Part shown: positions 3,002 through 64,000 of the stretch, one piece after another
Numbering within the stretch: position 1 is the stretch's first letter
Layout: each line of letters starts with the position of its first letter
Assembly (NCBI GenBank): GCA_026195275.1
Contig: JAPHQU010000002.1
Span: 5,964-69,963, forward strand
DNA length: 64,000 bases
Origin: Minisyncoccota bacterium
GTDB taxonomy: Bacteria > Patescibacteriota > Minisyncoccia > Phycocordibacterales > JABMNX01
Direction: 5' to 3'
The notes under the pieces: model-generated
The model's input: the letters and a program-made list of their open reading frames with translations, nothing else
The model's database searches: none
What the model was told of the DNA's origin: nothing
Position numbers and translations under genes: made by a program

Positions 3002-3027
3002 TCAAAGGCGCGCCCACAGGGCGCGCC
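3002..3027. terminator. perfect palindromic hairpin aggcgcgcc-cacag-ggcgcgcct
   Basis: 9-bp GC stem seen directly in sequence in the 260-bp noncoding gap after the DUF4015 gene; weak T-run so terminator function uncertain. Confidence 0.35.
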
Positions 3028-3127
3028 TCTTCATATCCCAAAGAGACACTCATTCTCATTGTATAAATAGGTATTTCTTTGTTTTACTCTTTCAACTTTC
3101 AACTTTTTACTTTACACTTGTTGATAT

Positions 3128-5041
3128 ATGGATGATCTCCAAAAAGTAACCTATATCGGCGCCACAGACGCGCGTGGCAAACGACAGCCTTTCGGTATCA
3201 AAGCGCTTGATCGCGCCAAGCACATGTATGTGATCGGCAAGACCGGTATGGGCAAGTCGACCTTGCTTGAGAATATGGCGATCCAGGACATCCAACATGG
3301 GAATGGCTTGGGCTTCATTGACCCACACGGCTCGACCGCTGAGAAACTCCTTGACTACGTGCCCGAGAATCGCATCAAGGACGTGATCTACTTCGCGCCG
3401 TTTGATATGGATTACCCGATCGCCTTTAACGTCATGGAGGATGTTGGCTACGACAAGCGACACCTCGTTGTCTCGGGACTCATGTCGACCTTTAAGAAGA
3501 TCTGGGTTGATGCGTGGTCGGCGCGTATGGAATACATTCTTACCAACGTGCTCCTTGCGCTCCTTGAGTATCCTGATTCGACACTCCTTGATGTGAATAA
3601 GATGCTCACCAACAAAGCCTTCCGCAAGAAAGTGGTTGAGAATATAACCGACCCCATCGTAAAGGATTTCTGGACGGTTGAGTTCGCAGGCTATACCGAC
3701 CGGTACACCCAAGAGGCAACCCCGGCAATTCAGAATAAGATCGGGCAATTTACCAGCAATCCGCTCATCCGCAACATCGTTGGGCAGCCAAAGTCGAGTT
3801 TTGATATGCGTGAAATCTTGGACTCCAAGAAGATATTCATTGCAAACCTCTCCAAAGGGCGCATGGGGGAGACTAACGCCGCACTTCTTGGAAGTATGCT
3901 TACCACCAAGATCTATCTCTCAGCCATGAGCCGCGCCGACGAGCCAGCTTCAGTTCAAGCGAAGCTCCCGCCTTTTTATTTCTATGTGGATGAGTTCCAA
4001 TCAATCGCGAACGAGTCGTTCGCCGACATTCTCTCTGAGGCCAGGAAGTACAAGCTCGCGCTCACAATCGCACACCAGTACGTCGAGCAGATGGAGGAGA
4101 ATGTGCGCAACGCCGTCTTTGGCAACGTGGGTAGCACGATCGCGTTTCGTGTCGGGCCGTTTGATGCTGAAGTGCTTGAAACCATCTTCCAACCCAAGTT
4201 CATGGCGGAAGACCTGGTCGGGCTCGGCTTTGCACAGATCTATCTCACACTTATGATCGATGGGGTTGGGTCAGCCCCTTTTTCCGCAACCACCCTGCCG
4301 CCAATTGAAGAGCCGGAGATTACCTTTAAGGATGAGGCTATCAAAACATCGCGCAGTGCATATGGTCGGTCGCGCGCCGAGGTTGAGCAAGTTATCTCTG
4401 ACCGCAACAAGGAGGAGCTACCTGAGCCGCCGATGGGTGGCATGAAGAAGAAAGGAGGACAAGGAACTCCACAGAAAAACAGTACTCAACCAAAAGGGCC
4501 GATAGTCCACAGCACAAGCGGAGCACGGAAGGAGAAGACAACTATCCCACTTGCTGCGCTTAAAATGCATCAAAAACCGAATGACAAAGGTCCGAGTCCC
4601 GAACAACGATCAGCACTCAAGGAGGCCCTAATGTCGGCTCAAAAAAAGGGAATCACGGGTGCACCCTCTGCTCCAAAGGAGCCTAAGTCACAAGAGAATC
4701 ATTCACAACCGCAGCGAAGAGGCGCTCCTGAGGGGGCAGTTTTACACACTATGGAACGCGATTCACAACAGCCGGAACCAGCTTCAGAAAAAAAGGAACA
4801 AAGACCTACTCCACCTGAAATAAAGAGAGGACAATCTTCAGCACCCCAGAAGGAAGAGCAAAAGGCGGTTCAACATAAAGAAACCGCCGCACAGAAACCG
4901 CCGCAAGGACCTCCCCAAAAAGAGACACCAGAAGAGGTCTCGACACAAACTCTTTCTCCCGAGCAGAAGATTCAAGCAGAAGGCTCGCCCGGAGAGGTGC
5001 CACTTGATGTGCTCGAAGATATATTAAAGGACGACAAATAA
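3128..5041 (+). CDS. soluble FtsK/HerA-superfamily ATPase of the TraD/TraG/VirD4 'type IV secretion DNA-binding domain' type, with ~200-aa disordered K/E/P/Q-rich C-terminal tail
   Basis: Walker A VIGKTGMGKSTLL, Walker B FYFYVDEFQ, LTIAHQY motif; no N-terminal TM helices; low-complexity tail from ~aa 430 ending DVLEDILKDDK. Confidence 0.65.
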   Translation: MDDLQKVTYIGATDARGKRQPFGIKALDRAKHMYVIGKTGMGKSTLLENMAIQDIQHGNGLGFIDPHGSTAEKLLDYVPENRIKDVIYFAPFDMDYPIAFNVMEDVGYDKRHLVVSGLMSTFKKIWVDAWSARMEYILTNVLLALLEYPDSTLLDVNKMLTNKAFRKKVVENITDPIVKDFWTVEFAGYTDRYTQEATPAIQNKIGQFTSNPLIRNIVGQPKSSFDMREILDSKKIFIANLSKGRMGETNAALLGSMLTTKIYLSAMSRADEPASVQAKLPPFYFYVDEFQSIANESFADILSEARKYKLALTIAHQYVEQMEENVRNAVFGNVGSTIAFRVGPFDAEVLETIFQPKFMAEDLVGLGFAQIYLTLMIDGVGSAPFSATTLPPIEEPEITFKDEAIKTSRSAYGRSRAEVEQVISDRNKEELPEPPMGGMKKKGGQGTPQKNSTQPKGPIVHSTSGARKEKTTIPLAALKMHQKPNDKGPSPEQRSALKEALMSAQKKGITGAPSAPKEPKSQENHSQPQRRGAPEGAVLHTMERDSQQPEPASEKKEQRPTPPEIKRGQSSAPQKEEQKAVQHKETAAQKPPQGPPQKETPEEVSTQTLSPEQKIQAEGSPGEVPLDVLEDILKDDK

Positions 5042-27432: not shown

Positions 27433-27675
27433 ATGCCAGCACGAAAACGAAAAGCAGCTAAGAAGACAACACGTCGCAAGGTTGCTAAGAAAGCAGCTAA
27501 GAAGACGACGCGTCGCAAGACAACTCGTCGTAAGGTTGCTAAGAAAGCAGCTAAGAAGACGACGCGTCGCAAGACAACTCGTCGTAAGGTTGCTAAGAAA
27601 GCAGCTAAGAAGACAACTCGTCGTAAGGTTGCTAAGAAAGCAGCAAAAAAGACTACCCGTCGACGAAAGCGATAG
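27433..27675 (+). CDS. histone H1-like / Hc1-like highly basic repeat protein (KKAAKKTTRRK repeats), likely nucleoid-associated DNA-binding protein
   Basis: 80-aa ORF that is ~50% Lys/Arg with tandem repeats; underlying DNA is an imperfect tandem repeat; followed by strong terminator. Confidence 0.6.
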   Translation: MPARKRKAAKKTTRRKVAKKAAKKTTRRKTTRRKVAKKAAKKTTRRKTTRRKVAKKAAKKTTRRKVAKKAAKKTTRRRKR

Positions 27676-34911: not shown

Positions 34912-37900
34912 ATGCCAGAAGGTATTTTCTTAAATAACAAAAAATATTTCTCTTCTCGAGATGCGGCGAGTTATGCCGGCTATACCAACGACTACGTCTC
35001 CCGGCTCTGTCGCGAGGGAAAGGTGCCTGGGCAGATGATGGGTCGGGTGTGGCATGTCGAGGCGGAGCCGTTTCTTGAATTCATTCTTGGGCAGGAGCAG
35101 AAGAAGGTCGAGCAGTCACAAGCGCTCTCAGAAGGACGAAAGAAGACATACCAAAAGAGTGTTGAAGAAGATGAGATTGAGAAGCTCACGAGTCTCAGTA
35201 TTCCGCGTGTCGCACTCCCAGTGCCCGCCATCTCCCGAGAGTTGATCGAGAAGTCTGTCGCACTCAGCTTTGCGGTCTTTCTTGTGTTTGGTTCGTACTT
35301 GGCAAAAGATTCTGAATTTGTTCGTGCGACACCTGCGGCGATTGTGTCGTACGCGACAGAGGTGCGCAACAACACACTCGGCATGGTCGAGGGTGTTCGT
35401 GAGGGTGTAGAACTTTCTTCAGTACAAACACGATCCCTTATCTCGAGTGTCGCAAGCGGTGCTTACACAGATGAAATAAAAGAACAGTTCTCTCTTAAAA
35501 ATATCTCTCTTGCGGCTTCCAACTTCGGGGGGCGCATTCTTGATGTAATCGAGCGTGGTATGAAAGGATACCTTTCATTAGTTGTCCTAGCTGGCGAAGG
35601 TGTTGTTTCGGTAAGTGATGCAATCGCTAAACTCCCTGTTGTTGCACGCGAGGCATCAGTCGCAGACATTGTCGCGTACAGCACGCAAAAGGTACAAGAT
35701 GTTGCGGCTAGCACTTCAGGCGGACTGGGCAACGCACGCGAATATTTTTTGGTCTCGATTGCTCGTGGTGTAGATGGGGCGAAGCAGATTTTCCAGAATT
35801 CTCACACAACACTCGCCGCGGTGAATGTTCCTGATTTCTTTGGGAGTCTTTCAAGCAGTATTCGTTTTGGCATCATCGACTGGCTCGACATCCAATCAGA
35901 AGGAGTGGTCACTACTCCTTCCTTTGTAGAGGAGCCACAGGCAGTTATTGAACATCCAGTGATTGAGCGGGTCGTGGAGACGAGGGAGACGATCGTGCGT
36001 AGCGGTATCACCGAAGAGTATGTGCTTGCCAAACTCGAGGAACTTAACAATAAACTATCTTCAAAGATATACGATCTCACTGCTAGCAATGCATCAAGTA
36101 TCGCTAGTAACTTCAATACAATCGCAAAGACGAATATCATTAACAAACTCAAGTCAGTAACGATCACAAGCTCAACGATCACTGATTCGACGATCAATGG
36201 CAATTCAACATTCTCCGGAACGACTGGTTCATTCAGCGGAGCGGTCGATGTCGGGTCGCTCACAGTGGGTGGTGAGGTAATCACTGGCGGGCTTACTGTC
36301 GGTACCGACGGGATTGTCTTTGTGAGTAGTTCCGGCAATGTAGGTATTGGTACCACCTCACCATACGCAAAACTCTCTGTGGTAGGAGAGGTGGTTGCCG
36401 CTAACTTCACCGCCACCTCAACGAGCGCGACCTCAACTTTCAATGGCGCACTTCTCGCAACACGCGCACCAACGCTTCCACATACATTTTCAGTTTGGTC
36501 ACCTGGCGCCAGTGGCTCCAATTATGCTGACGCTTCTCTCGTGATTAATCCAGCTTCATCCGTTGCCGATGGAAACCTGATCACCGCCTCTGTAGGTGGG
36601 TCGGTTAAATTCATTGTTGACGCCGAGGGAGGTGTGTTTACTAACTCACTTACCTCAGTTGGTGGCGTGACGCTCTCGACCACTACTGCGGCAACGTTCA
36701 CAGTTGAAGGCAACACTACGTTGGGTGACTCTGTCTCTGATGTAACCACAATCAACGGTACACTCACTGTAACTGGACAGACGTCTGTCTCAACAGTTGA
36801 TGGTAACTTCGGCGTGGGCACCACGTCTCCATGGGCACGTCTCTCGGTTGCGGGGGTGTCGAATGGTACCGACCCACTCTTTACAATCTCCACCTCAACC
36901 GCATCAGCAACCTCAACTGCGGTGTTAGTTGATGCAAACGGCAACTTTGGTATCGGTACTACATCACCATCTGCAACTTTTGCGGTTGAAGGTGACGCGT
37001 ATATTAACGGGGTGATCACCACCGACCTCACTACTTCAGGGATCGTCGACTTCAGTGGTACGGGTACCACAACCTTTGGAGGTGACATAGAAGTACAGGG
37101 TCTTTCTGCAATCAATTACCTTGAGACACCATTCATCTATGCGACCTCTACCACTGCCACGTCGACATTCGCCGGCGGTCTTGCAATAGAGACCACCGGA
37201 CTGGTGTATGACTATTCGACGAATAGAGTGGGAATTGGGACGGCATCACCAAGTCAGTCGCTTGATGTGTACGGAAAGATAGCACAAAACGGATTGCAGA
37301 TGTTGTACAACGCTAACGCAGGCGGCTACACAGGGTCGCTATTCTTTGGTAGTGGTGGAGGAAGCCTTTCCCATACATCAGGAAGTGAAGGATATTATAA
37401 TACAGCGGTTGGATATGATACCCTGCTTTCAAATACAACCGGAAGTTATAACTCAGCACTTGGATACAAAGCGCTCTACTCAAATACCACGGGAGACAGC
37501 AACACTGCTGTAGGGAAGGACGCGCTTCGGTATAATACGACCGGGTTTCAGAATACCGCCATAGGACTCGACGCGCTTCAAGCTAATACCGAGGGGTATA
37601 ACAACTCCGCCCTAGGATTCGATGCTCTTTACTCAAATACCACAGGATACACCAACATTGCTGTAGGGATGAGCGCGCTCTACCGCAATACCGAGGGGTT
37701 CGATAACGTCGCAGTGGGATACGAGGCACTCCATGATAACACCATCGGAGATGGAAGTGTTGCTTTAGGTCTCGGTGCCCTCTACAACAACACTACCGGG
37801 GGTTGGAATGTCGCTTTGGGGCCTCACGCCGGCAGGTACGTCACTGGTAGTGTCGCGAATGAGTCTTCTGAGTACTCAGTGTACATTGGTGCGAACACAA

Positions 37901-38544
37901 AAGGGTTTGCAGACGGTGATTCAAACGAGATTGTTATCGGCTACAACGCCACCGGTATAGGATCCAATACGGTAACTCTCGGAAACGACTCTATTGTTAC
38001 CACAGCACTTAAGGGAAATGTCGGCATCGGTACCACAACCCCGTGGGGCAAGCTCTCCATTGAGATGGATACAACCGATCCGTCCTTTGTCGTCTCCAAC
38101 CAGGGCTCATCAACCCCTGCACTCTATGTCTCGGGTGTAAACCAGGACGGCGTCGTGGGTATTGGTACGACCGGTGGCACCGGTCGCAGACTCGATGTCT
38201 TTGACGCGGGCAATCCGCAGTTGCGTCTCTCGCAGACGAGCAGTATCTACACGAACTTCCAAGTTGCAGCAAGCACTGGAGACCTCACGATCGACCTCAA
38301 CCCGAACACAAGCGCGACAAACATTTACCTTACACAAACAGGCGGTTCGACCGGTGCAAACCTGCGTGTGTGTGAAGGTTCGGCCTGCCCGAGTGTGACG
38401 ATCTCAAGCGGTGGTAATGTGCTCGCCGAGAACGGTTTCTACTTCGGCAACGGCTACAAGCTCGACCAGGTCGCTGGCACCACGACCGAGATTGCGGTGT
38501 ATGACACCAGTGCGACTGCGATCATCATCTTCGATGAGTTCTAA
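34912..38544 (+). CDS. giant (1210 aa) surface protein: N-terminal HTH_17-like domain, single TM helix, then tail-fibre-like extracellular region with NVGIGTTSP motifs and seven or eight 17-aa xxNxAxGxxALxxNTxG repeats
   Basis: N-term FSSRDAASYAGYTNDYVSRLCREGKVPGQMMGRVWHV paralogous to upstream gene; TM SVALSFAVFLVFGSYLAK; repeats read directly in translation; stop 5 nt before tatC start. Confidence 0.6.
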   Translation: MPEGIFLNNKKYFSSRDAASYAGYTNDYVSRLCREGKVPGQMMGRVWHVEAEPFLEFILGQEQKKVEQSQALSEGRKKTYQKSVEEDEIEKLTSLSIPRVALPVPAISRELIEKSVALSFAVFLVFGSYLAKDSEFVRATPAAIVSYATEVRNNTLGMVEGVREGVELSSVQTRSLISSVASGAYTDEIKEQFSLKNISLAASNFGGRILDVIERGMKGYLSLVVLAGEGVVSVSDAIAKLPVVAREASVADIVAYSTQKVQDVAASTSGGLGNAREYFLVSIARGVDGAKQIFQNSHTTLAAVNVPDFFGSLSSSIRFGIIDWLDIQSEGVVTTPSFVEEPQAVIEHPVIERVVETRETIVRSGITEEYVLAKLEELNNKLSSKIYDLTASNASSIASNFNTIAKTNIINKLKSVTITSSTITDSTINGNSTFSGTTGSFSGAVDVGSLTVGGEVITGGLTVGTDGIVFVSSSGNVGIGTTSPYAKLSVVGEVVAANFTATSTSATSTFNGALLATRAPTLPHTFSVWSPGASGSNYADASLVINPASSVADGNLITASVGGSVKFIVDAEGGVFTNSLTSVGGVTLSTTTAATFTVEGNTTLGDSVSDVTTINGTLTVTGQTSVSTVDGNFGVGTTSPWARLSVAGVSNGTDPLFTISTSTASATSTAVLVDANGNFGIGTTSPSATFAVEGDAYINGVITTDLTTSGIVDFSGTGTTTFGGDIEVQGLSAINYLETPFIYATSTTATSTFAGGLAIETTGLVYDYSTNRVGIGTASPSQSLDVYGKIAQNGLQMLYNANAGGYTGSLFFGSGGGSLSHTSGSEGYYNTAVGYDTLLSNTTGSYNSALGYKALYSNTTGDSNTAVGKDALRYNTTGFQNTAIGLDALQANTEGYNNSALGFDALYSNTTGYTNIAVGMSALYRNTEGFDNVAVGYEALHDNTIGDGSVALGLGALYNNTTGGWNVALGPHAGRYVTGSVANESSEYSVYIGANTKGFADGDSNEIVIGYNATGIGSNTVTLGNDSIVTTALKGNVGIGTTTPWGKLSIEMDTTDPSFVVSNQGSSTPALYVSGVNQDGVVGIGTTGGTGRRLDVFDAGNPQLRLSQTSSIYTNFQVAASTGDLTIDLNPNTSATNIYLTQTGGSTGANLRVCEGSACPSVTISSGGNVLAENGFYFGNGYKLDQVAGTTTEIAVYDTSATAIIIFDEF

Positions 38545-39690: not shown

Positions 39691-39981
39691 TTGACGCGTA
39701 ACTTGCAAACATCCATGCCTATGTCTGAGAAAGAGGAAAATACATTTGAGAAATTCAACAAGAACCGCCGACAATTCCTTGTCGTTGGCGGTGCGAGTGT
39801 AGCTTCGTTTTTCTTGGGAAAGATCTTTGGTCCGAGCATCAATCTCTTCTCGCAAGATATCCCGATTAGCGAGAGAGATTTTAAGGATTTTCGCATCGTG
39901 GAGACCAACAAGGAGATGAAGCTCTACGATCGTAAGGGCAACGAGCTCTTCATCGTTGACAAGGAAAGCTTCCGCGAATAA
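39691..39981 (+). CDS. small protein with twin-arginine signal/anchor (NRRQFLVVGGASVASFFLG)
   Basis: Tat motif read in translation; TTG start at 39691 or ATG at 39715; stop lies inside a perfect 13-bp hairpin (39972-40000). Confidence 0.45.
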   Translation: MTRNLQTSMPMSEKEENTFEKFNKNRRQFLVVGGASVASFFLGKIFGPSINLFSQDIPISERDFKDFRIVETNKEMKLYDRKGNELFIVDKESFRE

Positions 39982-40011
39982 AGGCAAAGCCTTTATTCGC
40001 GAAAACTTTCC

Positions 40012-40037
40012 AGTTGAAAGTTATAAAGTTCATAAAG
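40012..40037. repeat. left inverted repeat flanking Avd/IVS-like gene (agttgaaagttataaagttcataaag)
   Basis: matches reverse complement of 40400-40424 at 22/25 positions. Confidence 0.7.
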
Positions 40038-40054
40038 TTAGAAAGTGTGCGACG

Positions 40055-40399
40055 ATGAAGATAGAAAAATTTGAAGATATCCTCGCGTGGCAGAAAGCTC
40101 AAAAACTGACTCTTTTTGTCTACAAAACATTTCGTAACAATAAGGATTTTGGCTTTAAAAATCAGATAGAGAGAGCGGCGGTCTCAGTGATGAATAATAT
40201 AGCCGAAGGATTTGAGCGCCAGACAAACAAGGAGCTGACAAACTTCCTGTTTATCGCAAAAGGTTCTTGTGGAGAGGTTAGGTCTATGCTCTATGTTGCT
40301 CTTGAGTTAAAATGTATTACAAAAGCAGACTTTGACGAAATGTATAAAATGTCGGTGGAGATATCAAAGATGCTTTCGGGATTGATCAAGACTTTATAA
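40055..40399 (+). CDS. four-helix-bundle protein of the 23S rRNA intervening-sequence protein / Avd-like family
   Basis: kvWQKAqkL...KNQIERAAVSVMNNIAEGFERQT..FLFIAKGSCGEV..L pattern matches the IVS-protein family consensus; track ORF start 39956 is an upstream extension. Confidence 0.7.
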   Translation: MKIEKFEDILAWQKAQKLTLFVYKTFRNNKDFGFKNQIERAAVSVMNNIAEGFERQTNKELTNFLFIAKGSCGEVRSMLYVALELKCITKADFDEMYKMSVEISKMLSGLIKTL

Positions 40400-40424
40400 C
40401 TTTACAAACTTTTAACTTTCAACT
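40400..40424. repeat. right inverted repeat flanking Avd/IVS-like gene (ctttacaaacttttaactttcaact)
   Basis: reverse complement matches 40012-40037. Confidence 0.7.
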
Positions 40425-40433
40425 CGTTTCTCT

Positions 40434-40829
40434 ATGACAATGCGCATCTCAGCAACCCGAATAGACATGGACGACAAGACGCTCCAGAAGCCGGTCCTCA
40501 AGGACTATGGCGAGACAGTGAACGCGCTTGGCTCCGGAGGCGGCACGCGAGATGTCGACCTCACACTCGGCAACGTGGTGACCTGCACAGTCTCTACAAG
40601 CACCAACACATTCACATTCTCGAATCCGTCTGCATCAGGCACCGCCTGCAGCTTCACGCTCATCCTCACCAACGGCGGTTCACAGACCGTCAATTGGCCC
40701 GCGTCTGTTGGCTGGGCAGGCGGTACCGGACCGACCTTGACCAGCTCAGGTGTCGACGTCATCACCTTTGTCACAATCGACGCCGGCACGACATGGTATG
40801 GTTTTGCTGCCGGTCTGGCTATGGCGTAG
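40434..40829 (+). CDS. hypothetical protein (Thr/Ser/Gly-rich, 131 aa)
   Basis: ORF with RBS-less ATG after the inverted repeat; no recognised family; shares short TxSTxNxF motif with next gene. Confidence 0.4.
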   Translation: MTMRISATRIDMDDKTLQKPVLKDYGETVNALGSGGGTRDVDLTLGNVVTCTVSTSTNTFTFSNPSASGTACSFTLILTNGGSQTVNWPASVGWAGGTGPTLTSSGVDVITFVTIDAGTTWYGFAAGLAMA

Positions 40830-40880
40830 TCTATTGTGCTGTGCTCTGTAGGATTTTTGTCTTAGATTCTTATTTCTCTT

Positions 40881-41735
40881 ATGCCCTTCGGAACTTCATT
40901 CAGAACACTTCTTGCGAGCGCGAGTAACGGAAGTGGCGGCGGTTTTAATCTGACAGTTTCTTCCACGACTAACAAGTTCAACCTGTACAATGCGCTTATC
41001 GCAGACGGGTGGAACGGGACTGATGTCGTCGAAGCCACGGTCACCGTGGACACCGGGGTAGTTGTCTATTCGGATACCACGGCGACCGCAGCATTTGATG
41101 CGACAGGGCTTCCGGCTGGGTCCACCTTATCGCTGATCAACCTTGGCTATCTGTACGGTAAGGGGGGAAACGGCGGCGCTGGCGGCTGGAGAGGTGGAGA
41201 TAATTATCCGACCAATGGTGCCGCAGGTTCGGCAGGCGGAACCTCCTTCAAGACAGACAGTAATTGCACTGTCGAAATAACCAACGCCAATGGCTACATT
41301 TATGGTGGAGGCGGAGGCGGTGGCGGAGGCGGTGGCGGGTACTTAATCGGAGGTCACGATTGCGGCATAACCGGTGGTGGCGGCGGAGGCGGTGGTGCAG
41401 GGTATTCTGGCGGTGGCGGCGGAAGCGGCGGAAATATGTCAGGCTCCGGCTGTACTATCGGAAAATGTAGTGGCACTGCCGGATCAACAGGATCATCCTC
41501 TTCCGGAGGTGGTCCGGGTAGTGGCTGTACGGTTAACATCTGCGTTAGCGGCAACGGCGGCGGGGGTGGCGGTCTAGGTGCTGGCGGAAGTTCTGGTAGC
41601 AATGCGTCGTCCTGTAATTCTATGAACAAATCTGGTGGAGGTGGCGGCGCAGCCGGTAAATCCGTCGAAGGCAACACCTACGTCACTTTCTTGTCTGGTG
41701 ACGATTCGACACACGTAAAAGGACCAAAAGTATAA
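40881..41735 (+). CDS. glycine-rich, Cys-containing hypothetical protein (long poly-Gly tracts)
   Basis: GGGGGGGGGGGG tracts, seven Cys in C-terminal half; alternate-frame ORFs across the G-rich DNA are artefacts. Confidence 0.45.
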   Translation: MPFGTSFRTLLASASNGSGGGFNLTVSSTTNKFNLYNALIADGWNGTDVVEATVTVDTGVVVYSDTTATAAFDATGLPAGSTLSLINLGYLYGKGGNGGAGGWRGGDNYPTNGAAGSAGGTSFKTDSNCTVEITNANGYIYGGGGGGGGGGGGYLIGGHDCGITGGGGGGGGAGYSGGGGGSGGNMSGSGCTIGKCSGTAGSTGSSSSGGGPGSGCTVNICVSGNGGGGGGLGAGGSSGSNASSCNSMNKSGGGGGAAGKSVEGNTYVTFLSGDDSTHVKGPKV

Positions 41736-51406: not shown

Positions 51407-51493
51407 GTTCCTTCCGCAACAATGCAGTGTTTCCAATAACACAGCATCACCACTTCACTTTCCACCCGCACTTTCCACCCTCATTCCCTCATT

Positions 51494-51675
51494 CATACGA
51501 TATATCGTATGACCCCACCTTCACTCCACCCCCACTCCCTCATTCATACGATATATCGTATGACCCCATCTTCACTCCACCCCCACTTCTTCATTCATAC
51601 GATATATCGTATGAGAATTGTTATACACATTACGCATTGATTGCCCACTGAAGATTTCATACGATATATCGTATA
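51494..51675. repeat. array of four copies (~54-bp spacing) of perfect 18-bp palindrome CATACGATATATCGTATG with C-rich spacers, immediately upstream of trpR-like gene
   Basis: copies at 51494-51511, 51545-51562, 51596-51613, 51658-51675 (last 17/18); spacers are near-identical (not CRISPR-like). Confidence 0.85.
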
Positions 51676-52156: not shown

Positions 52157-52182
52157 CATTCATACGATATATCGTATGAATG
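52157..52182. repeat. 26-bp perfect palindrome CATTCATACGATATATCGTATGAATG (fifth local copy) downstream of trpR-like gene
   Basis: read directly. Confidence 0.85.
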
Positions 52183-52266
52183 GTATGTGATTCACAAGTG
52201 TGCTGTGGGGTTGGTTATTGTATGAATGGTATGTGATTTACAAGTGTGCCGTATGGTTGGTAAGAT
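52175..52266. repeat. tandem direct repeat, 2 x 46 bp (tatgaatggtatgtgatt[c/t]acaagtgtgc...)
   Basis: two adjacent near-identical units just upstream of the dehydrogenase gene. Confidence 0.8.
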
Positions 52267-59073: not shown

Positions 59074-59146
59074 GCCACCTTAGCTCAGTTGGTAGAGCAA
59101 CGGTTTTGTAAACCGTAGGTCGTCAGTTCGAATCTGACAGGTGGCT
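59074..59146 (+). tRNA. tRNA-Thr (anticodon TGT)
   Basis: cloverleaf read by eye: acceptor GCCACCT/AGGTGGC, D arm GCTCAGTTGGTAGAGC, anticodon stem ACGGT-TTTGTAA-ACCGT, T arm GGTTCGAATCT region; no encoded CCA. Confidence 0.8.
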
Positions 59147-61686: not shown

Positions 61687-62454
61687 ATGCTCCAAAGGCA
61701 CTTTTTTGGTATACTCAGGCGTATGACTGCTGAACATACAGCACACATACACCCCATCACGCGCATGATCCGCGAAATAAACGCGATTTTTGGCGAGATG
61801 GGTTTTACCTTTGCAGAAGGTCCTGAGATCGAGACCGAGCACTACAACTTTGACGCACTCAATGTGCCGGCTAATCACCCCGCGCGTGATATGTGGGATA
61901 CTTTCTGGCTTAAACCACTTAACGCAAAGAAACTCCTCCGCACCCACACCTCACCCGTCCAGGTGCGCTATATGGAAGCGCACAAGGACGATCTCCCGAT
62001 CCGGATTATTGCGCCGGGCAAGGTCTATCGACATGAGGCGACTGACATGACACATGAAGCGCAGTTTTACCAAGTCGAGGGGCTTATGATTGGGAAAGAT
62101 GTGACCTTAGCGCACCTCAAGGGGGTACTCACCACCTTTTTTGAGAAGTTCTTCGGCGCGGATGTCGAGGTCAGGCTTCGTCCGAGCTATTTCCCGTTTG
62201 TGGAGCCGGGGGTTGAGATTGATATGCGCTTGGTGGGGGAGAATGTACCCGAGCGGCTCGCGGGGAAGTGGATTGAGATTATGGGCGCCGGCATGGTCCA
62301 TCCGAAGGTGCTTGAGAGCTCAGGTATTGACCCGCGAGAATGGCAGGGTTTTGCGTTCGGTACCGGTGTTGAGCGGCTCGGCATGCTTAAGTACGGCATT
62401 GATGACACGCGCCTCTTTCACACAGGCGACCTCAGGTTCGTCAATCAGTTCTAA
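61687..62454 (+). CDS. pheS: phenylalanine--tRNA ligase alpha subunit (short form lacking N-terminal domain)
   Basis: HPITR motif 1, class II motifs 2/3 (FRPSYFPFVEPGVEID, GFAFGTGVERLGMLKYG); possible start at Met13 (61723). Confidence 0.85.
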   Translation: MLQRHFFGILRRMTAEHTAHIHPITRMIREINAIFGEMGFTFAEGPEIETEHYNFDALNVPANHPARDMWDTFWLKPLNAKKLLRTHTSPVQVRYMEAHKDDLPIRIIAPGKVYRHEATDMTHEAQFYQVEGLMIGKDVTLAHLKGVLTTFFEKFFGADVEVRLRPSYFPFVEPGVEIDMRLVGENVPERLAGKWIEIMGAGMVHPKVLESSGIDPREWQGFAFGTGVERLGMLKYGIDDTRLFHTGDLRFVNQF

Positions 62455-62494
62455 ATTGGAGAGTAGAAAATGGGAGGTAGAAGATAGATACAAT

Positions 62495-62851
62495 ATGTCA
62501 AAAAGTTATGAAAATTTGGATATATGGAAAAATGGAACAGACTTTGCAACTCTGGTCTATAAAGTTACGTTGGATTTTCCAAAATCTGAACAGTTTGGTA
62601 TCACATCTCAATTGCGCCGCGCGGTAGTTTCCGCCCCTTTGAACATTGCCGAGGGATCAAGTCGTACTTCTAAGAAAGATTATGCTCGATTCATAGAGAT
62701 AGCCATAGGTTCTCTGAATGAGGTGGTAAGTTTACTCGTTATATCCAAGAATCTTGACTATCTAACAGTACAAAAGTATGAAGAAATGAAGGAAGCAGCC
62801 TTGGGTATCGGTCGGTCGCTTGGCGCTTTCAAGAAATATCTATTAAAATAG
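62495..62851 (+). CDS. second four-helix-bundle 23S-rRNA-IVS-protein / Avd-like family protein
   Basis: YENLDIWKNGTDFATLVYKVTLDFPKSEQFGITSQLRRAVVSAPLNIAEGSSRTSKKDY...IGSLNEV matches family consensus; sits between pheS and pheT. Confidence 0.7.
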   Translation: MSKSYENLDIWKNGTDFATLVYKVTLDFPKSEQFGITSQLRRAVVSAPLNIAEGSSRTSKKDYARFIEIAIGSLNEVVSLLVISKNLDYLTVQKYEEMKEAALGIGRSLGAFKKYLLK

Positions 62852-62878
62852 CTAACTACATTCTACTTTCTACCTTCT

Positions 62879-64000
62879 ATGCTCATATCTTACAACTGGC
62901 TCCAGACATATTTTGATACAAAGCTCCCAACTCCCGACGAGCTTGCTGAGAAGCTCACTTTCCATTCGTTTGAGATTGAGGGGGTCGAGAAGACAGAGAA
63001 CGACACAGTGATCGATGTAGATGTCTTGCCAAACCGTGCACACGATTGTCTCTCGCATCGTGGCATCGCGAAAGAACTCTCGGTTCTCTTTGAGATACCG
63101 CTTAATCGTGATGTGCTTCGTGAAGACGAGCCGGAGTTCTCTGAGTCGAAGCTTCTCTCGGTTGATATCGAGGACTCTCTTTTGTGCCGCAGGTATAGCG
63201 CTGCGGTTATTCGCGGGGTAAAAGTCGCACCATCACCCGAGTGGCTCAAAGCGCGTCTCGAGGCGCTTGGACAGCGCTCGATAAACAACATTGTGGACGC
63301 GACCAACTACGTCATGTTTGGGCTTGGACAGCCACTTCACGCATTTGACATGAAGAAGCTTGAGGAGCGGGACGGTGCGTATCGTATTAACGTGCGTTCA
63401 GCACATGACGGGGAGAGTATCACGACACTCACTGGTGAAGGGTATGAACTCACACCTCAGACGCTCCTCATTACCGACGGTAATAGTGACGCACCGATCG
63501 GGATTGCGGGCATTAAAGGTGGGAAGATAGCCGAGGTTGATCAAGAAACGACCGACATTGTGCTTGAGTCTGCGAATTTCAACCCGGCACACACGCGCAA
63601 AAGCTCGCAGATACTCAAGCTTCGCACTGATGCGTCGACTCGTTTTGAGAATGAACTTGCGCCGGAGTATGCGCCATACGGCCTTCGTGAAGTGGTTGCG
63701 CTCATCCTCGATATCGCCGGCGGCGAAGCTGAGGGGTATGTTGATATATTTCCACGACAGCAGAGTATTCCATACATAACAGGAGTATCACTTGAGGAGA
63801 TCAACAGTCTTTTAGGCACTTCTGTGAAGGAACAGGATGTCGAGCAAATACTCGATCGTTTTGGATTCGTGTTTGAGAGGGTGTCGCCGATTGACCGGGT
63901 CCTTGAAGAAGCTCGGAAACACGAGGGTGTGTCGTATAAGTATGGAGCAAGTATTCGGTTTGACGCACCCAAGGCATTCGATTGCTCGTCGTTTGTCTCA
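62879..64000 (+). CDS. pheT: phenylalanine--tRNA ligase beta subunit (5' part, continues beyond window)
   Basis: MLISYNWLQTYFDTKLPTPDELAEKLTFHSFEIEGVE (tRNA-binding domain), B3/4 domain. Confidence 0.85.
   Translation, partial: MLISYNWLQTYFDTKLPTPDELAEKLTFHSFEIEGVEKTENDTVIDVDVLPNRAHDCLSHRGIAKELSVLFEIPLNRDVLREDEPEFSESKLLSVDIEDSLLCRRYSAAVIRGVKVAPSPEWLKARLEALGQRSINNIVDATNYVMFGLGQPLHAFDMKKLEERDGAYRINVRSAHDGESITTLTGEGYELTPQTLLITDGNSDAPIGIAGIKGGKIAEVDQETTDIVLESANFNPAHTRKSSQILKLRTDASTRFENELAPEYAPYGLREVVALILDIAGGEAEGYVDIFPRQQSIPYITGVSLEEINSLLGTSVKEQDVEQILDRFGFVFERVSPIDRVLEEARKHEGVSYKYGASIRFDAPKAFDCSSFVS

Follow-up and report, generated by a model that had tools for sequence, protein, structure and literature searches.

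A four-helix-bundle gene enclosed by complementary unit arrays in a Patescibacteriota operon: probably one copy of a widespread family of intervening-sequence-type cassettes

The locus described here raises the question of why a gene of the family known from 23S rRNA intervening sequences (IVSs) should lie between inverted repeats in an operon of protein genes. The helix-45 IVS of Coxiella burnetii is 444 nt long, has a 28-bp terminal stem that RNase III cuts in the middle, and carries an ORF of the PF05635 family, S23p (PMC4990558). ORFs of the 23S_rRNA_IVP type have also been reported in rRNA insertions of the Candidate Phyla Radiation (CPR) (PMC11270868), and proposals that IVSs are transposition remnants or mobile elements are cited in PMC4990558. 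Where the 23S IVSs come from, and what their conserved ORF does, has been a standing question since the early 1990s. With moderate confidence, we explain the region as one copy of a large family of promoterless, horizontally spread IVS-type cassettes, in which RNase III would cut the stem formed by the two arms.

The window, that is, the whole 64,000-nt stretch of DNA that was analyzed, carries the gene at 40055-40399 on the forward strand (cassette 1), and its product is a four-helix-bundle protein of 114 aa (PF05635/TIGR02436). Against the PF05635 (23S_rRNA_IVP) profile, the protein scored 118 bits (E=2.7e-34; cutoff 33.8), with residues 7-109 aligned to profile positions 1-106 of 106, and against TIGR02436 ('four helix bundle protein') it scored 111 bits (E=3e-32; cutoff 24). 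Its assignment to the IVS/Avd family, which the earlier note had made from the sequence alone, therefore holds well above the profile cutoff. Sequence comparison also relates the protein to 2GSC (1e-10) and 2RLD (1.5e-6), which are structures of pentameric four-helix bundles, and solved relatives with this fold are pentamers (PMC4990558). The exact protein was not on record when looked up, and no near-identical copy was found elsewhere; since the best match is only 78% identical in amino acids, movement in the lineage of the window is probably not recent. Among known defence systems, only a weak PADLOC match was obtained (PDC-M64B, E=6e-4). Across relatives the cassette ORF is under purifying selection (pN ~0.21, pS ~0.86).

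The gene order at the locus is p1210 (a 1210-aa ORF, 34912-38544), TatC, TatA, p96, cassette 1, and p131, a tail-fibre-like ORF. The upstream neighbor p96 (39691-39981) contains the twin-arginine motif NRRQFLV and has TatC and TatA directly upstream of it, in agreement with its earlier description as a Tat-signal gene. The cassette was also rightly placed outside any rRNA, as the window contains no rRNA and only a tRNA-Thr at 59074. A scan for consensus promoters and terminators, which is weak for CPR organisms, found nothing inside cassette 1, and no transposase was seen in the 64-kb window.

The left arm (40012-40046, forward strand) is a purine-rich unit array, AGTTGAAAGTT-ATAAAGTT-CATAAAGTT-AGAAAGT, and the right arm (40390-40424, forward strand) is the complementary unit array GACTTTAT-AACTTTAC-AAACTTTT-AACTTTCAACT, whose first unit overlaps the last codons and stop of the ORF (K-T-L-stop). 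The near-perfect inverted repeats first noticed around the gene lie at 40012-40037 and 40400-40424. Their complementarity stands, and over the full arms it reaches 31 of 34 aligned positions; what does not stand is their description as a simple repeat, since each arm is an array of 3-4 short units of 7-9 nt, AAAGTY upstream and RACTTT downstream. The terminal 11 nt of the two arms, AGTTGAAAGTT and AACTTTCAACT, are perfectly complementary and so constitute terminal inverted repeats. The arm-to-arm alignment score was 51, compared with a maximum of 32 for shuffled arms. The left arm is the sole AAAGTY cluster with at least three units in the 64 kb, and its 26-mer has no other match in the window at up to 3 mismatches (0 in 100 shuffles). 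In the minimum-free-energy RNA fold of 39955-40435, the ORF is closed by an interrupted stem of ~31 bp, and none of 100 shuffles was equally stable (z=-3.9). No Rfam family covers the cassette arms.

Adjoining the left arm is a 23-bp hairpin (39963-40011, forward strand), an inverted repeat with 91% complementarity and a 3-nt loop. Its left half (39963-39985) belongs to the upstream Tat-signal gene, of which it forms the native 3' end with the stop codon, and its right half (39989-40011) repeats the left in inverted orientation. Orthologues of the Tat-signal gene keep the C-terminus DKESF(K/R/A)x* and have no hairpin. This foldback hairpin, the unit-array build of the arms and the second cassette described below were absent from the earlier note.

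Comparison with orthologous sites showed which part of the locus is extra DNA. All five syntenic loci compared (L081-L085), with the order p1210, TatC, TatA, p96, p131, lack the cassette, and their p96-p131 spacer is 28-42 nt long, compared with 452 nt in the window. The DNA that is extra relative to these empty sites is 39986-40424 (forward strand), comprising the foldback copy, left arm, ORF and right arm; the native sequence TCTATGACAATG picks up again past 40424. In L081, a different four-helix-bundle cassette is located at another junction of the same operon. A comparable polymorphism was found in a Flavobacteriales trio, in which L020 has a cassette and L010 and L040 do not, with flanks that are 90-94% identical. 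Its absence from syntenic relatives makes cassette 1 look like one copy of a widespread insertable cassette; loss in the five relatives is a less likely account of the empty sites.

No target-site duplication was found on comparing filled and empty sites. The L020 junction shows a target deletion of ~100 nt, and the window junction has the foldback copy on its left. In L020 and L081, neighboring genes have been given new start codons, and it is relevant to annotation that cassette arms can supply neighboring genes with new stop or start codons. The untidy junctions and the missing target-site duplication count against the cassette explanation that we favor.

The composition and distribution of the cassette also differ from those of its surroundings. 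The GC content of cassette 1 is 36% versus 48% for the window, which places it in the lowest 0.9% of windows. The 114-aa protein is 70-78% identical to proteins from other phyla, while the neighboring TatC is only ~60% identical to that of the nearest syntenic relatives. Taken with the empty sites and low GC, this cross-phylum identity gives a sporadic distribution that fits horizontal acquisition.

The arms are a general property of the family. AAAGTY units occur upstream of 84 relatives at 2.9 per 100 nt and RACTTT units downstream at 3.7 per 112 nt, compared with a background rate of 0.12 per 100 nt, and units in the opposite orientation are not enriched. Two or more units are present on both sides in about 62 of the 84, from several phyla, and for 72 of 80 arm pairs the alignment score exceeds those of all shuffled controls. 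The units of the two arms covary, with a 20:0:2:40 split between AAAGTC/GACTTT and AAAGTT/AACTTT (p=2.5e-14). The check proposed in the earlier note, whether such repeats are missing at related loci, therefore came out in favor of its reading: most homologous cassettes, from different phyla, are bracketed by them. Elsewhere in the family, including among more distant relatives, the unit sequences differ, yet left and right arms remain complementary, as in the second cassette of the window (GTAGAA/TTCTAC), L081 (GAATTAGG/CCTAATTC), L091 (GGGAAAA/TTTTCCC), L092 (AAGGTT/AACCTT), L036 (TTAGGG/CCCTAA), L050 (CGTGAAA/TTTCACG) and L057 (CAAAAT/ATTTTG). One distant member, L011, has flanking arrays that are direct, not inverted. 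Arms typically contain 3-4 units (range 0 to 12) with 6-nt cores and variable spacers of 1-3 nt, and mismatches are frequent at the spacer positions between cores.

The window itself holds a second cassette (62458-62878) between pheS and pheT. Its left arm of purine-rich GTAGAA-type units (62458-62491, forward strand) directly follows the pheS stop codon (62452-62454), its ORF (62495-62851, forward strand) encodes a 118-aa PF05635 protein (E=1.5e-33, 115.6 bits) that is 33% identical to the cassette 1 protein, and its right arm of TTCTAC units, CTAACTACATTCTACTTTCTACCTTCT (62852-62878, forward strand), ends at the pheT start codon (62879). For cassette 2, the overall RNA fold does not exceed shuffled sequences in stability (z=-0.7).

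Cassettes are placed in accordance with host transcription. The cassette ORF lies on the same strand as its upstream neighbor in 75 of 79 cases (p=5e-5) and as its downstream neighbor in 76 of 82 (p=5e-4), where the base rate for host genes among themselves is 78.6%. Host genes abut the cassettes directly on both sides, with median gaps to the ORF of 55 and 58 nt that are mostly filled by the arms. An inverton was considered and rejected, as none of the 77 cassettes with both neighbors called is flipped relative to both.

ORF-less IVSs in helix 45 or helix 25 of 23S rRNA are found in Salmonella and Campylobacter, and short insertions occur at the classical sites in CPR. In L059, helix 45 of the 23S rRNA carries such an insertion, ~95 nt long and without an ORF, which is built of exactly the cassette-arm units, AAAGUC/GACUUU, and a cassette with AAAGTC/GACTTT-type units lies near this 23S rRNA gene. 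Unlike the ORF-less IVSs, cassette 1 carries a conserved gene in its loop. Cassette-arm units also form 18 ORF-less 'solo' hairpins in tight intergenic spacers. No cassette ORF was found inside rRNA (23S helix 9, 25 or 45) in the 80 related loci or in the window. The same-unit helix-45 hairpin, the five empty syntenic loci, the presence and absence in Flavobacteriales and the low GC together support the suggestion that cassette 1 is a mobile IVS-like element.

The likeness to the ORF-containing 23S IVSs of Coxiella burnetii and Leptospira is close. Both carry a PF05635 ORF, the Coxiella IVS (444 nt) and cassette 1 (413 nt arm to arm) are of the same size, and in both, terminal complementary sequences give a stem of ~28-31 bp around the ORF. 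Both are also AT-rich relative to the host and sporadic, with horizontal transfer as the likely source (PMC4990558). Cassette 1 differs in that it lies between protein genes of an mRNA operon, not in rRNA, and in having arms composed of repeated 7-9-nt units. The Coxiella IVS is a proven substrate of RNase III, and for cassette 1 such cutting is predicted from the shared geometry.

In the explanation that we favor, cassette 1 would have been inserted in the tight spacer between the Tat-signal and tail-fibre-like genes, which are probably co-transcribed, and would depend for its expression on read-through transcription of the host operon. Once transcribed, the arms would pair into a stem of ~30 bp around the ORF, with the geometry of the 23S IVSs. 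An RNase III cut in this stem would free the cassette RNA and leave the host messages on either side as separate molecules, so that an insertion could be tolerated in an operon or in rRNA helix 45. Processes at the DNA level, such as slippage inside an array and template switching or conversion from one arm to the other, apparently keep the arms strictly Watson-Crick and internally uniform. The inverted host copy at the left junction would likewise follow from template switching.

The tests that bear on whether RNA is the selected form of the arms gave an even result. Mismatches in the arms show no wobble bias (G:U 92 versus A:C 106, p=0.36), a test of little power because most mismatches look like register noise, and duplex energies of sense and antisense arms show no asymmetry (39 versus 39 loci). 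Equal stability of the two strands and the lack of a wobble excess mean that the sense RNA is not singled out as the selected molecule. When each arm was compared with its partner and with the arms of other cassettes, the partner came out best in only 6 of 42 cases (median score 51, versus 41 for the arms of others); this advantage is modest because the core motif is common to all arms, and much of the arm complementarity has the same cause. The strict Watson-Crick symmetry, without wobble or strand bias, favors a different explanation, in which the arms are terminal inverted repeats acting at the DNA level, as reiterated sites bound by a transposase or recombinase that is provided in trans, the gene is a passenger in a MITE-like 'mobile insertion cassette', and any RNA pairing is a by-product. 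The polymorphism at the L081-L085 sites and in Flavobacteriales and the 18 solo hairpins in tight spacers fit it as well, and known transposons have multi-site ends to which inverted terminal arrays are similar. We nevertheless consider it rather unlikely. Target-site duplications are absent and the junctions untidy, no candidate transposase adjoins the cassettes, which occur even in very small CPR genomes, and a mere passenger would not be expected to show orientation bias with respect to host transcription or purifying selection. Units also differ among proteins that are ~65% identical (e.g. L036 and L080 versus the window), which would not be expected with a conserved trans-acting binder.

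Known repeat-delimited elements differ from cassette 1 in similar respects. Correia/NEMIS elements of Neisseria and similar MITEs are small, intergenic, bounded by terminal inverted repeats and co-transcribed with their neighbors, and their hairpins are reported RNase III substrates in mRNA; they are non-coding, however, with defined target duplications and many near-identical copies, while cassette 1 has a conserved gene, no target duplication and diverged copies. Mobile insertion cassettes (MICs, such as Bacillus MIC231) and integron gene cassettes resemble cassette 1 as promoterless, repeat-delimited genes co-oriented with host transcription. MICs have the ends of a known IS and use a transposase in trans, and integron cassettes have one attC on the 3' side and need an integrase/attI platform; neither arrangement was found at cassette 1. 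An integron cassette was rejected on the grounds that repeats flank the ORF on both sides and the neighbors are ordinary operon genes.

The arrays could also be putative RNA or DNA binding sites of the encoded pentamer, for autoregulation or for packaging of its own message. Ring proteins are known to bind reiterated short motifs with variable spacers, which is how the arms are built, Avd homologues bind nucleic acid and a polymerase, the solved relatives are pentamers, and the unit type shifts between distant protein subfamilies. This reading is improbable in our judgment, as binding does not require the arms to be complementary, yet this is their most conserved property. Proteins 63-68% identical to that of the window have TTAGGG, GAAAGG or GGGA-rich units, and hairpins that lack the ORF, such as that in 23S rRNA, are maintained with no gene beside them.

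Equally poor is the prospect that the gene is an ordinary resident with conserved hairpin arrays (an mRNA stabilizer or attenuator), vertically inherited and lost in relatives. Some cassettes are indeed stable at one site across genera (L014, L018, L023 and L057 precede the same PrgI-like gene, and L007 matches L008), recent identical copies are absent, and the protein is under purifying selection. Against this are the clean 28-42-nt spacer in all five syntenic relatives, the different cassette at another junction of the operon in L081, and the gain in L020 between flanks 90-94% identical to those of L010 and L040. A resident gene would also not account for a GC content 12 points under that of the host, for cross-phylum identity above that of neighboring housekeeping genes, or for cassette-arm units inside rRNA.

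A remnant Avd gene of a diversity-generating retroelement (DGR) is hardly credible, as the earlier note had already judged: the family does include DGR Avd proteins, with a weak PHROG match of the 114-aa protein to Avd (E=2e-3) and a sub-threshold match of cassette 2 to bAvd, but the 64 kb contain no reverse-transcriptase motif (YxDD/GxxxSQ-type ORF) and no TR/VR-type repeats, all genes within ~9 kb are housekeeping or surface genes with no RT domain among the neighbors, and in relatives host genes directly abut the cassette. Where the window has direct repeats of at least 45 nt, they are of an unrelated tandem or intragenic kind and lie at a distance from cassette 1. To our knowledge, no Avd gene bracketed by inverted arrays has been described. 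The accessory protein Avd of Bordetella phage BPP-1 (bAvd) shares the four-helix-bundle fold and family by homology (PMC10053308), and cassette 1 differs from the Avd locus of DGRs in lacking a reverse transcriptase, template repeat and variable repeat.

The cassette family appears to be very widespread and undescribed; no description of the flanking-array architecture was found in open-access papers and preprints. A stem-enclosed ORF design is present inside ordinary operons of several phyla and has arisen at sites that previously lacked it, and the elements known from rRNA may be no more than the conspicuous part of a far larger population. If so, this would explain the very abundant 'four helix bundle protein' annotations and provide a testable model for a harmless, (semi-)selfish gene in an essential transcript (pheST, tat, rRNA). 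Cultivable carriers, among them Segatella hominis BCRC 81118 (L024), Labilibacter sediminis CG51 (L041), Riemerella anatipestifer (L092) and Nostoc sp. ATCC 53789 (L091), would make RNase III processing, mobility and the influence on neighboring genes accessible to study. On a broader reading, which we put forward only tentatively and hold to be doubtful, free-standing four-helix-bundle genes would be an unrecognized class of mobile elements without a classical transposase, in which an Avd-like pentamer recruits a host polymerase. The class would comprise thousands of 'hypothetical' genes in Patescibacteria, Bacteroidota, Cyanobacteria and others, and the host polymerase would copy or re-insert the cassette. 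At each event, templated or slipped synthesis would build its microsatellite-like arms anew, so that units would be uniform within an element and different between elements, and ORF-bearing and ORF-less rRNA IVSs would be copies that landed in rRNA. As for a vehicle, no phage was found in IMG/VR (peptide-pattern scan) or INPHARED (tblastn), and plasmids of Nostoc, Riemerella and others carry only distant members, with 30-47% identity.

Cassette 1 is best described as a four-helix-bundle cassette of the rRNA intervening sequence (IVS) type that lies within an mRNA operon, and it is one of two in the window. Its 114-aa protein (40055-40399, + strand) matched PF05635 (23S_rRNA_IVP) across the entire domain (E=2.7e-34) and TIGR02436, 'four helix bundle protein' (E=3e-32), in profile searches, and sequence similarity also links it to 2GSC and 2RLD, two pentameric structures of four-helix bundles. 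An earlier note, made from the sequence alone, had assigned the protein to the IVS/Avd family and had placed the cassette (39982-40430) outside any rRNA; the profile matches bear out the family, and rRNA genes were absent from the 64 kb searched. The inverted repeats quoted there do exist, and the arms are longer. The left arm (40012-40046, + strand) consists of the units AGTTGAAAGTT-ATAAAGTT-CATAAAGTT-AGAAAGT, and the right arm (40390-40424, + strand) is its mirror image, GACTTTAT-AACTTTAC-AAACTTTT-AACTTTCAACT, with 31 of 34 aligned positions of the full arms being complementary. The arms are thus unit arrays and more than plain inverted repeats. Clusters of at least three such units occur in the 64 kb only in these arms, the first right-arm unit overlaps the stop and last codons of the ORF, and the left 26-mer, with 3 mismatches or fewer allowed, matched nothing else in the window and nothing in 100 shuffles. 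The RNA of 39955-40435 is predicted to fold (z=-3.9) so that a ~31-bp interrupted stem closes the ORF, in agreement with the enclosing stem that had been proposed.

A genome scan, with one locus kept per species, gave 80 loci and 84 cassettes (61-72% amino-acid identity) from Patescibacteria and Bacteroidota, with a small number from MAGs that carry labels such as Spirochaetes, Gammaproteobacteria and Bdellovibrionales. On the sense strand of the 84 cassettes, the upstream 100 nt held 2.9 AAAGTY units and the downstream 112 nt held 3.7 RACTTT units, compared to a background of 0.12 per 100 nt for either unit, and there was no enrichment in the opposite orientation. The repeats do recur around related cassettes, with at least two units on each side in 62 of the 84. 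Unit cores were spaced by 7, 8 or 9 nt, the number of units per arm ranged from 0 to 12 (median 3-4), and 72 of 80 arm pairs outscored all shuffled controls. The arms also covary (Fisher p=2.5e-14): mostly-AAAGTC left arms occurred with mostly-GACTTT right arms in 20 cases with 0 exceptions, and AAAGTT left arms were paired with AACTTT right arms in 40 cases, 2 being mixed.

Distant members use other units and retain the design. In loci of other genomes and records (L handles), the unit pairs were GAATTAGG/CCTAATTC (L081), GGGAAAA/TTTTCCC (L091, a Nostoc plasmid), AAGGTT/AACCTT (L092, a Riemerella record filed in PLSDB as a plasmid), TTAGGG/CCCTAA (L036), CGTGAAA/TTTCACG (L050) and CAAAAT/ATTTTG (L057). 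Because the units vary in this way, what is conserved is the complementarity of the arms, their repetitiveness and the purine-rich 5′ arm. The exception was a distant family member (L011, 7120-7506) in which the flanking GATAAAC arrays are direct and not inverted. The family search gave at least 7,996 significant candidates, with 8,000 scored, and cassette 1 is one of very many across phyla.

Comparison with syntenic loci indicates that cassette 1 is an insertion. A metagenome scan using the neighboring TatC gene found five such loci (L081-L085), which share the order p1210 (the 1210-aa ORF, 34912-38544 in the window), TatC, TatA, p96 (the upstream Tat-signal ORF, 39691-39981) and p131 (the downstream tail-fibre-like ORF). 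The p96-p131 gap is 28-42 nt and lacks a cassette in all five loci, compared to 452 nt in the window, and native sequence resumes past 40424. A 23-bp hairpin at 39963-40011 is absent from the orthologues. Because the p96 C-terminus, DKESF(K/R/A)x*, is conserved in L081-L085, the left half of the hairpin is native coding DNA (the p96 3′ end), which the right half repeats in inverted form; the hairpin may be a footprint left by template switching during the insertion. Filled and empty sites, when compared, showed no target-site duplications at cassette junctions.

In L081, another cassette (37% identity) lies at the p1210-TatC junction, which in the window spans just 5 nt, and the right-arm units of that cassette (440-470) supply the TatC start codon and first codons. 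In a Flavobacteriales trio with flanks 90-94% identical, one cassette is common to all and a further one (3021-3365) is present in L020 only. This extra cassette replaced ~100 nt of spacer together with the opening codons of a SufS-like gene, to which its right-arm units (3366-3420) give a new in-frame ATG and first codons. As L020 and L081 illustrate, genes next to an inserted cassette can have their ends rewritten. The p1210-TatC spacer is an insertion hot spot, and a fresh tandem duplication of ORF and right arm was found at another locus (L077).

The GC content of cassette 1 is 36.1%, compared to 48.2% for the window, so that it ranks among the lowest 0.9% of all 413-nt segments; over the loci, mean GC was 30.5% in the ORF and 38.5% in the flanks. 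The cassette 1 protein is 70-78% identical to proteins of other phyla, whereas the adjoining TatC shares only ~60% identity with its nearest relatives in syntenic loci. Purifying selection acts on the ORF (pN ~0.21, pS saturated at ~0.86), and dN/dS was 0.07-0.3 in closer ORF pairs.

Cassettes lay on the same strand as the upstream neighbor in 75 of 79 cases (p=5e-5) and as the downstream neighbor in 76 of 82 (p=5e-4), both against a host base rate of 78.6%, and on the strand of both in 68 of 77 (base rate 66.7%, p=1e-5); none of the 77 was flipped relative to both. Median gaps to the neighbors were 55 and 58 nt, about the length of an arm. A consensus scan, which is weak for Candidate Phyla Radiation (CPR) organisms, found no sigma-70 promoter or intrinsic terminator in 39960-40430. 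Genes around cassette 1 encode Obg, GatB, a large surface protein, TatC, TatA, tail-fibre-like proteins, a sulfotransferase, GAPDH and pentose-phosphate enzymes. The two genes directly 3′ of it (40434-41735) are similar to the C-termini of phage tail fibres and to the GP38 adhesin (glycine-rich), and their products are probably cell-surface proteins of the CPR host. A diversity-generating retroelement (DGR) is unlikely, as had been anticipated: there was no reverse transcriptase among the neighbors, and no RT motif or TR/VR-type repeat in the 64 kb.

Cassette 2 (62458-62878) was detected with a profile made from the relatives' cassette proteins. Its 118-aa protein (62495-62851, + strand; PF05635 E=1.5e-33) is 33% identical to that of cassette 1, and it sits between pheS (stop codon 62452-62454) and pheT (ATG at 62879), which are normally adjacent in bacteria. 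The left arm (62458-62491, + strand) has GTAGAA-type units and the right arm (62852-62878, + strand) has TTCTAC-type units that end at the pheT start codon. The predicted fold pairs the arms as far as this codon, with an overall fold energy that is not exceptional.

In none of the 80 loci did the ORF lie within rRNA. Their flanks contained 18 ORF-less 'solo' hairpins of AAAGTY/RACTTT-type units (loci listed: L017, L021, L049, L051, L056, L060, L063, L066 and L073), which mostly fill tight spacers (6-17 nt) between co-oriented genes and look like MITE-like derivatives of cassette arms. A solo hairpin in a Magasanikbacteria MAG (L059, 7797-7867) is located inside a 23S rRNA gene, where an Rfam alignment put an insertion of ~95 nt into helix 45, which is the classical position of an IVS. 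The insertion consists of AAAGUC/GACUUU units throughout: AUAAAGUC-CAUAAAGUC-CAUAAAGUC-CAUAAAGUU on the 5′ side, then the loop, then GACUUUAUA-GACUUUU-GACUUUU-GACUUUU-GACUUG. The same locus has an AAAGTC-arm cassette ~900 nt past the 5S gene. The earlier note's observation is confirmed, its IVS-like reading being supported by the family, the arms, the empty sites and the lack of DGR parts, and its suggestion of a mobile element by the empty sites of L081-L085, the gain in L020 and the helix-45 hairpin.

The Coxiella IVS (444 nt) has a 28-bp terminal stem around a same-family ORF and is cut mid-stem by RNase III (PMC4990558). Cassette 1 is similar in that its ORF lies within a predicted terminal stem of ~31 bp, but the Coxiella element is in 23S helix 45 and cassette 1 is in an mRNA operon. 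A CPR survey of rRNA insertions reported 23S_rRNA_IVP ORFs within insertions of both 16S and 23S, and at classical IVS sites it found many short insertions that are not introns (PMC11270868). No description of the flanking-array design or of such operon-embedded cassettes was found in open-access papers and preprints, and an earlier description is possible.

Two tests for a sense-RNA signal were neutral: G:U-type and A:C-type arm mismatches were equally common (92 vs 106), with no sense-RNA bias, and the sense and antisense arm duplexes were equally stable (39 vs 39 loci). The arms accordingly appear uniform within themselves and strictly Watson-Crick in their pairing. Their complementarity owes much to the shared core, and a cassette's own partner arm was only modestly better than the arms of other cassettes. 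This strict and uniform pattern fits DNA-level homogenisation, by slippage inside the arrays and by template switching or conversion from one quasi-palindrome arm to the other. Template switching would also yield an inverted host-DNA copy at the left junction. Array slippage and quasi-palindrome template switching or conversion are established mechanisms. An RNA function of the arms is compatible with DNA-level homogenisation. Given the neutral tests and this fit, an RNase III step for the cassette rests on analogy and on the L059 helix-45 case.

Other repeats and inserts were also observed. A RACTTT-like array at 3085-3115, TTTCAACTTTCAACTTTTTACTTTAC, lies 13 nt 5′ of an ATG (3128) and has no four-helix-bundle gene beside it; it may represent an orphan right arm or have arisen by chance. 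At the p1210-TatC junction of L088 (706-2635), a RelE/HigB-like gene, an XRE HTH gene and an IS200/RAYT-like HUH ORF occur together with GGACATCGGATGTCC hairpins, and the p1210 3′ end is present there in three copies. A small ORF at 27434-27675 is made of 54-nt tandem repeats and encodes a very basic KKAAKKTTRRK-type protein. Repeats of 51 nt centered on the palindrome CATACGATATATCGTATG are present as one copy at 134-184 and as three tandem copies at 51474-51626, and a 46-nt tandem pair at 52170-52261 is, like them, intergenic.
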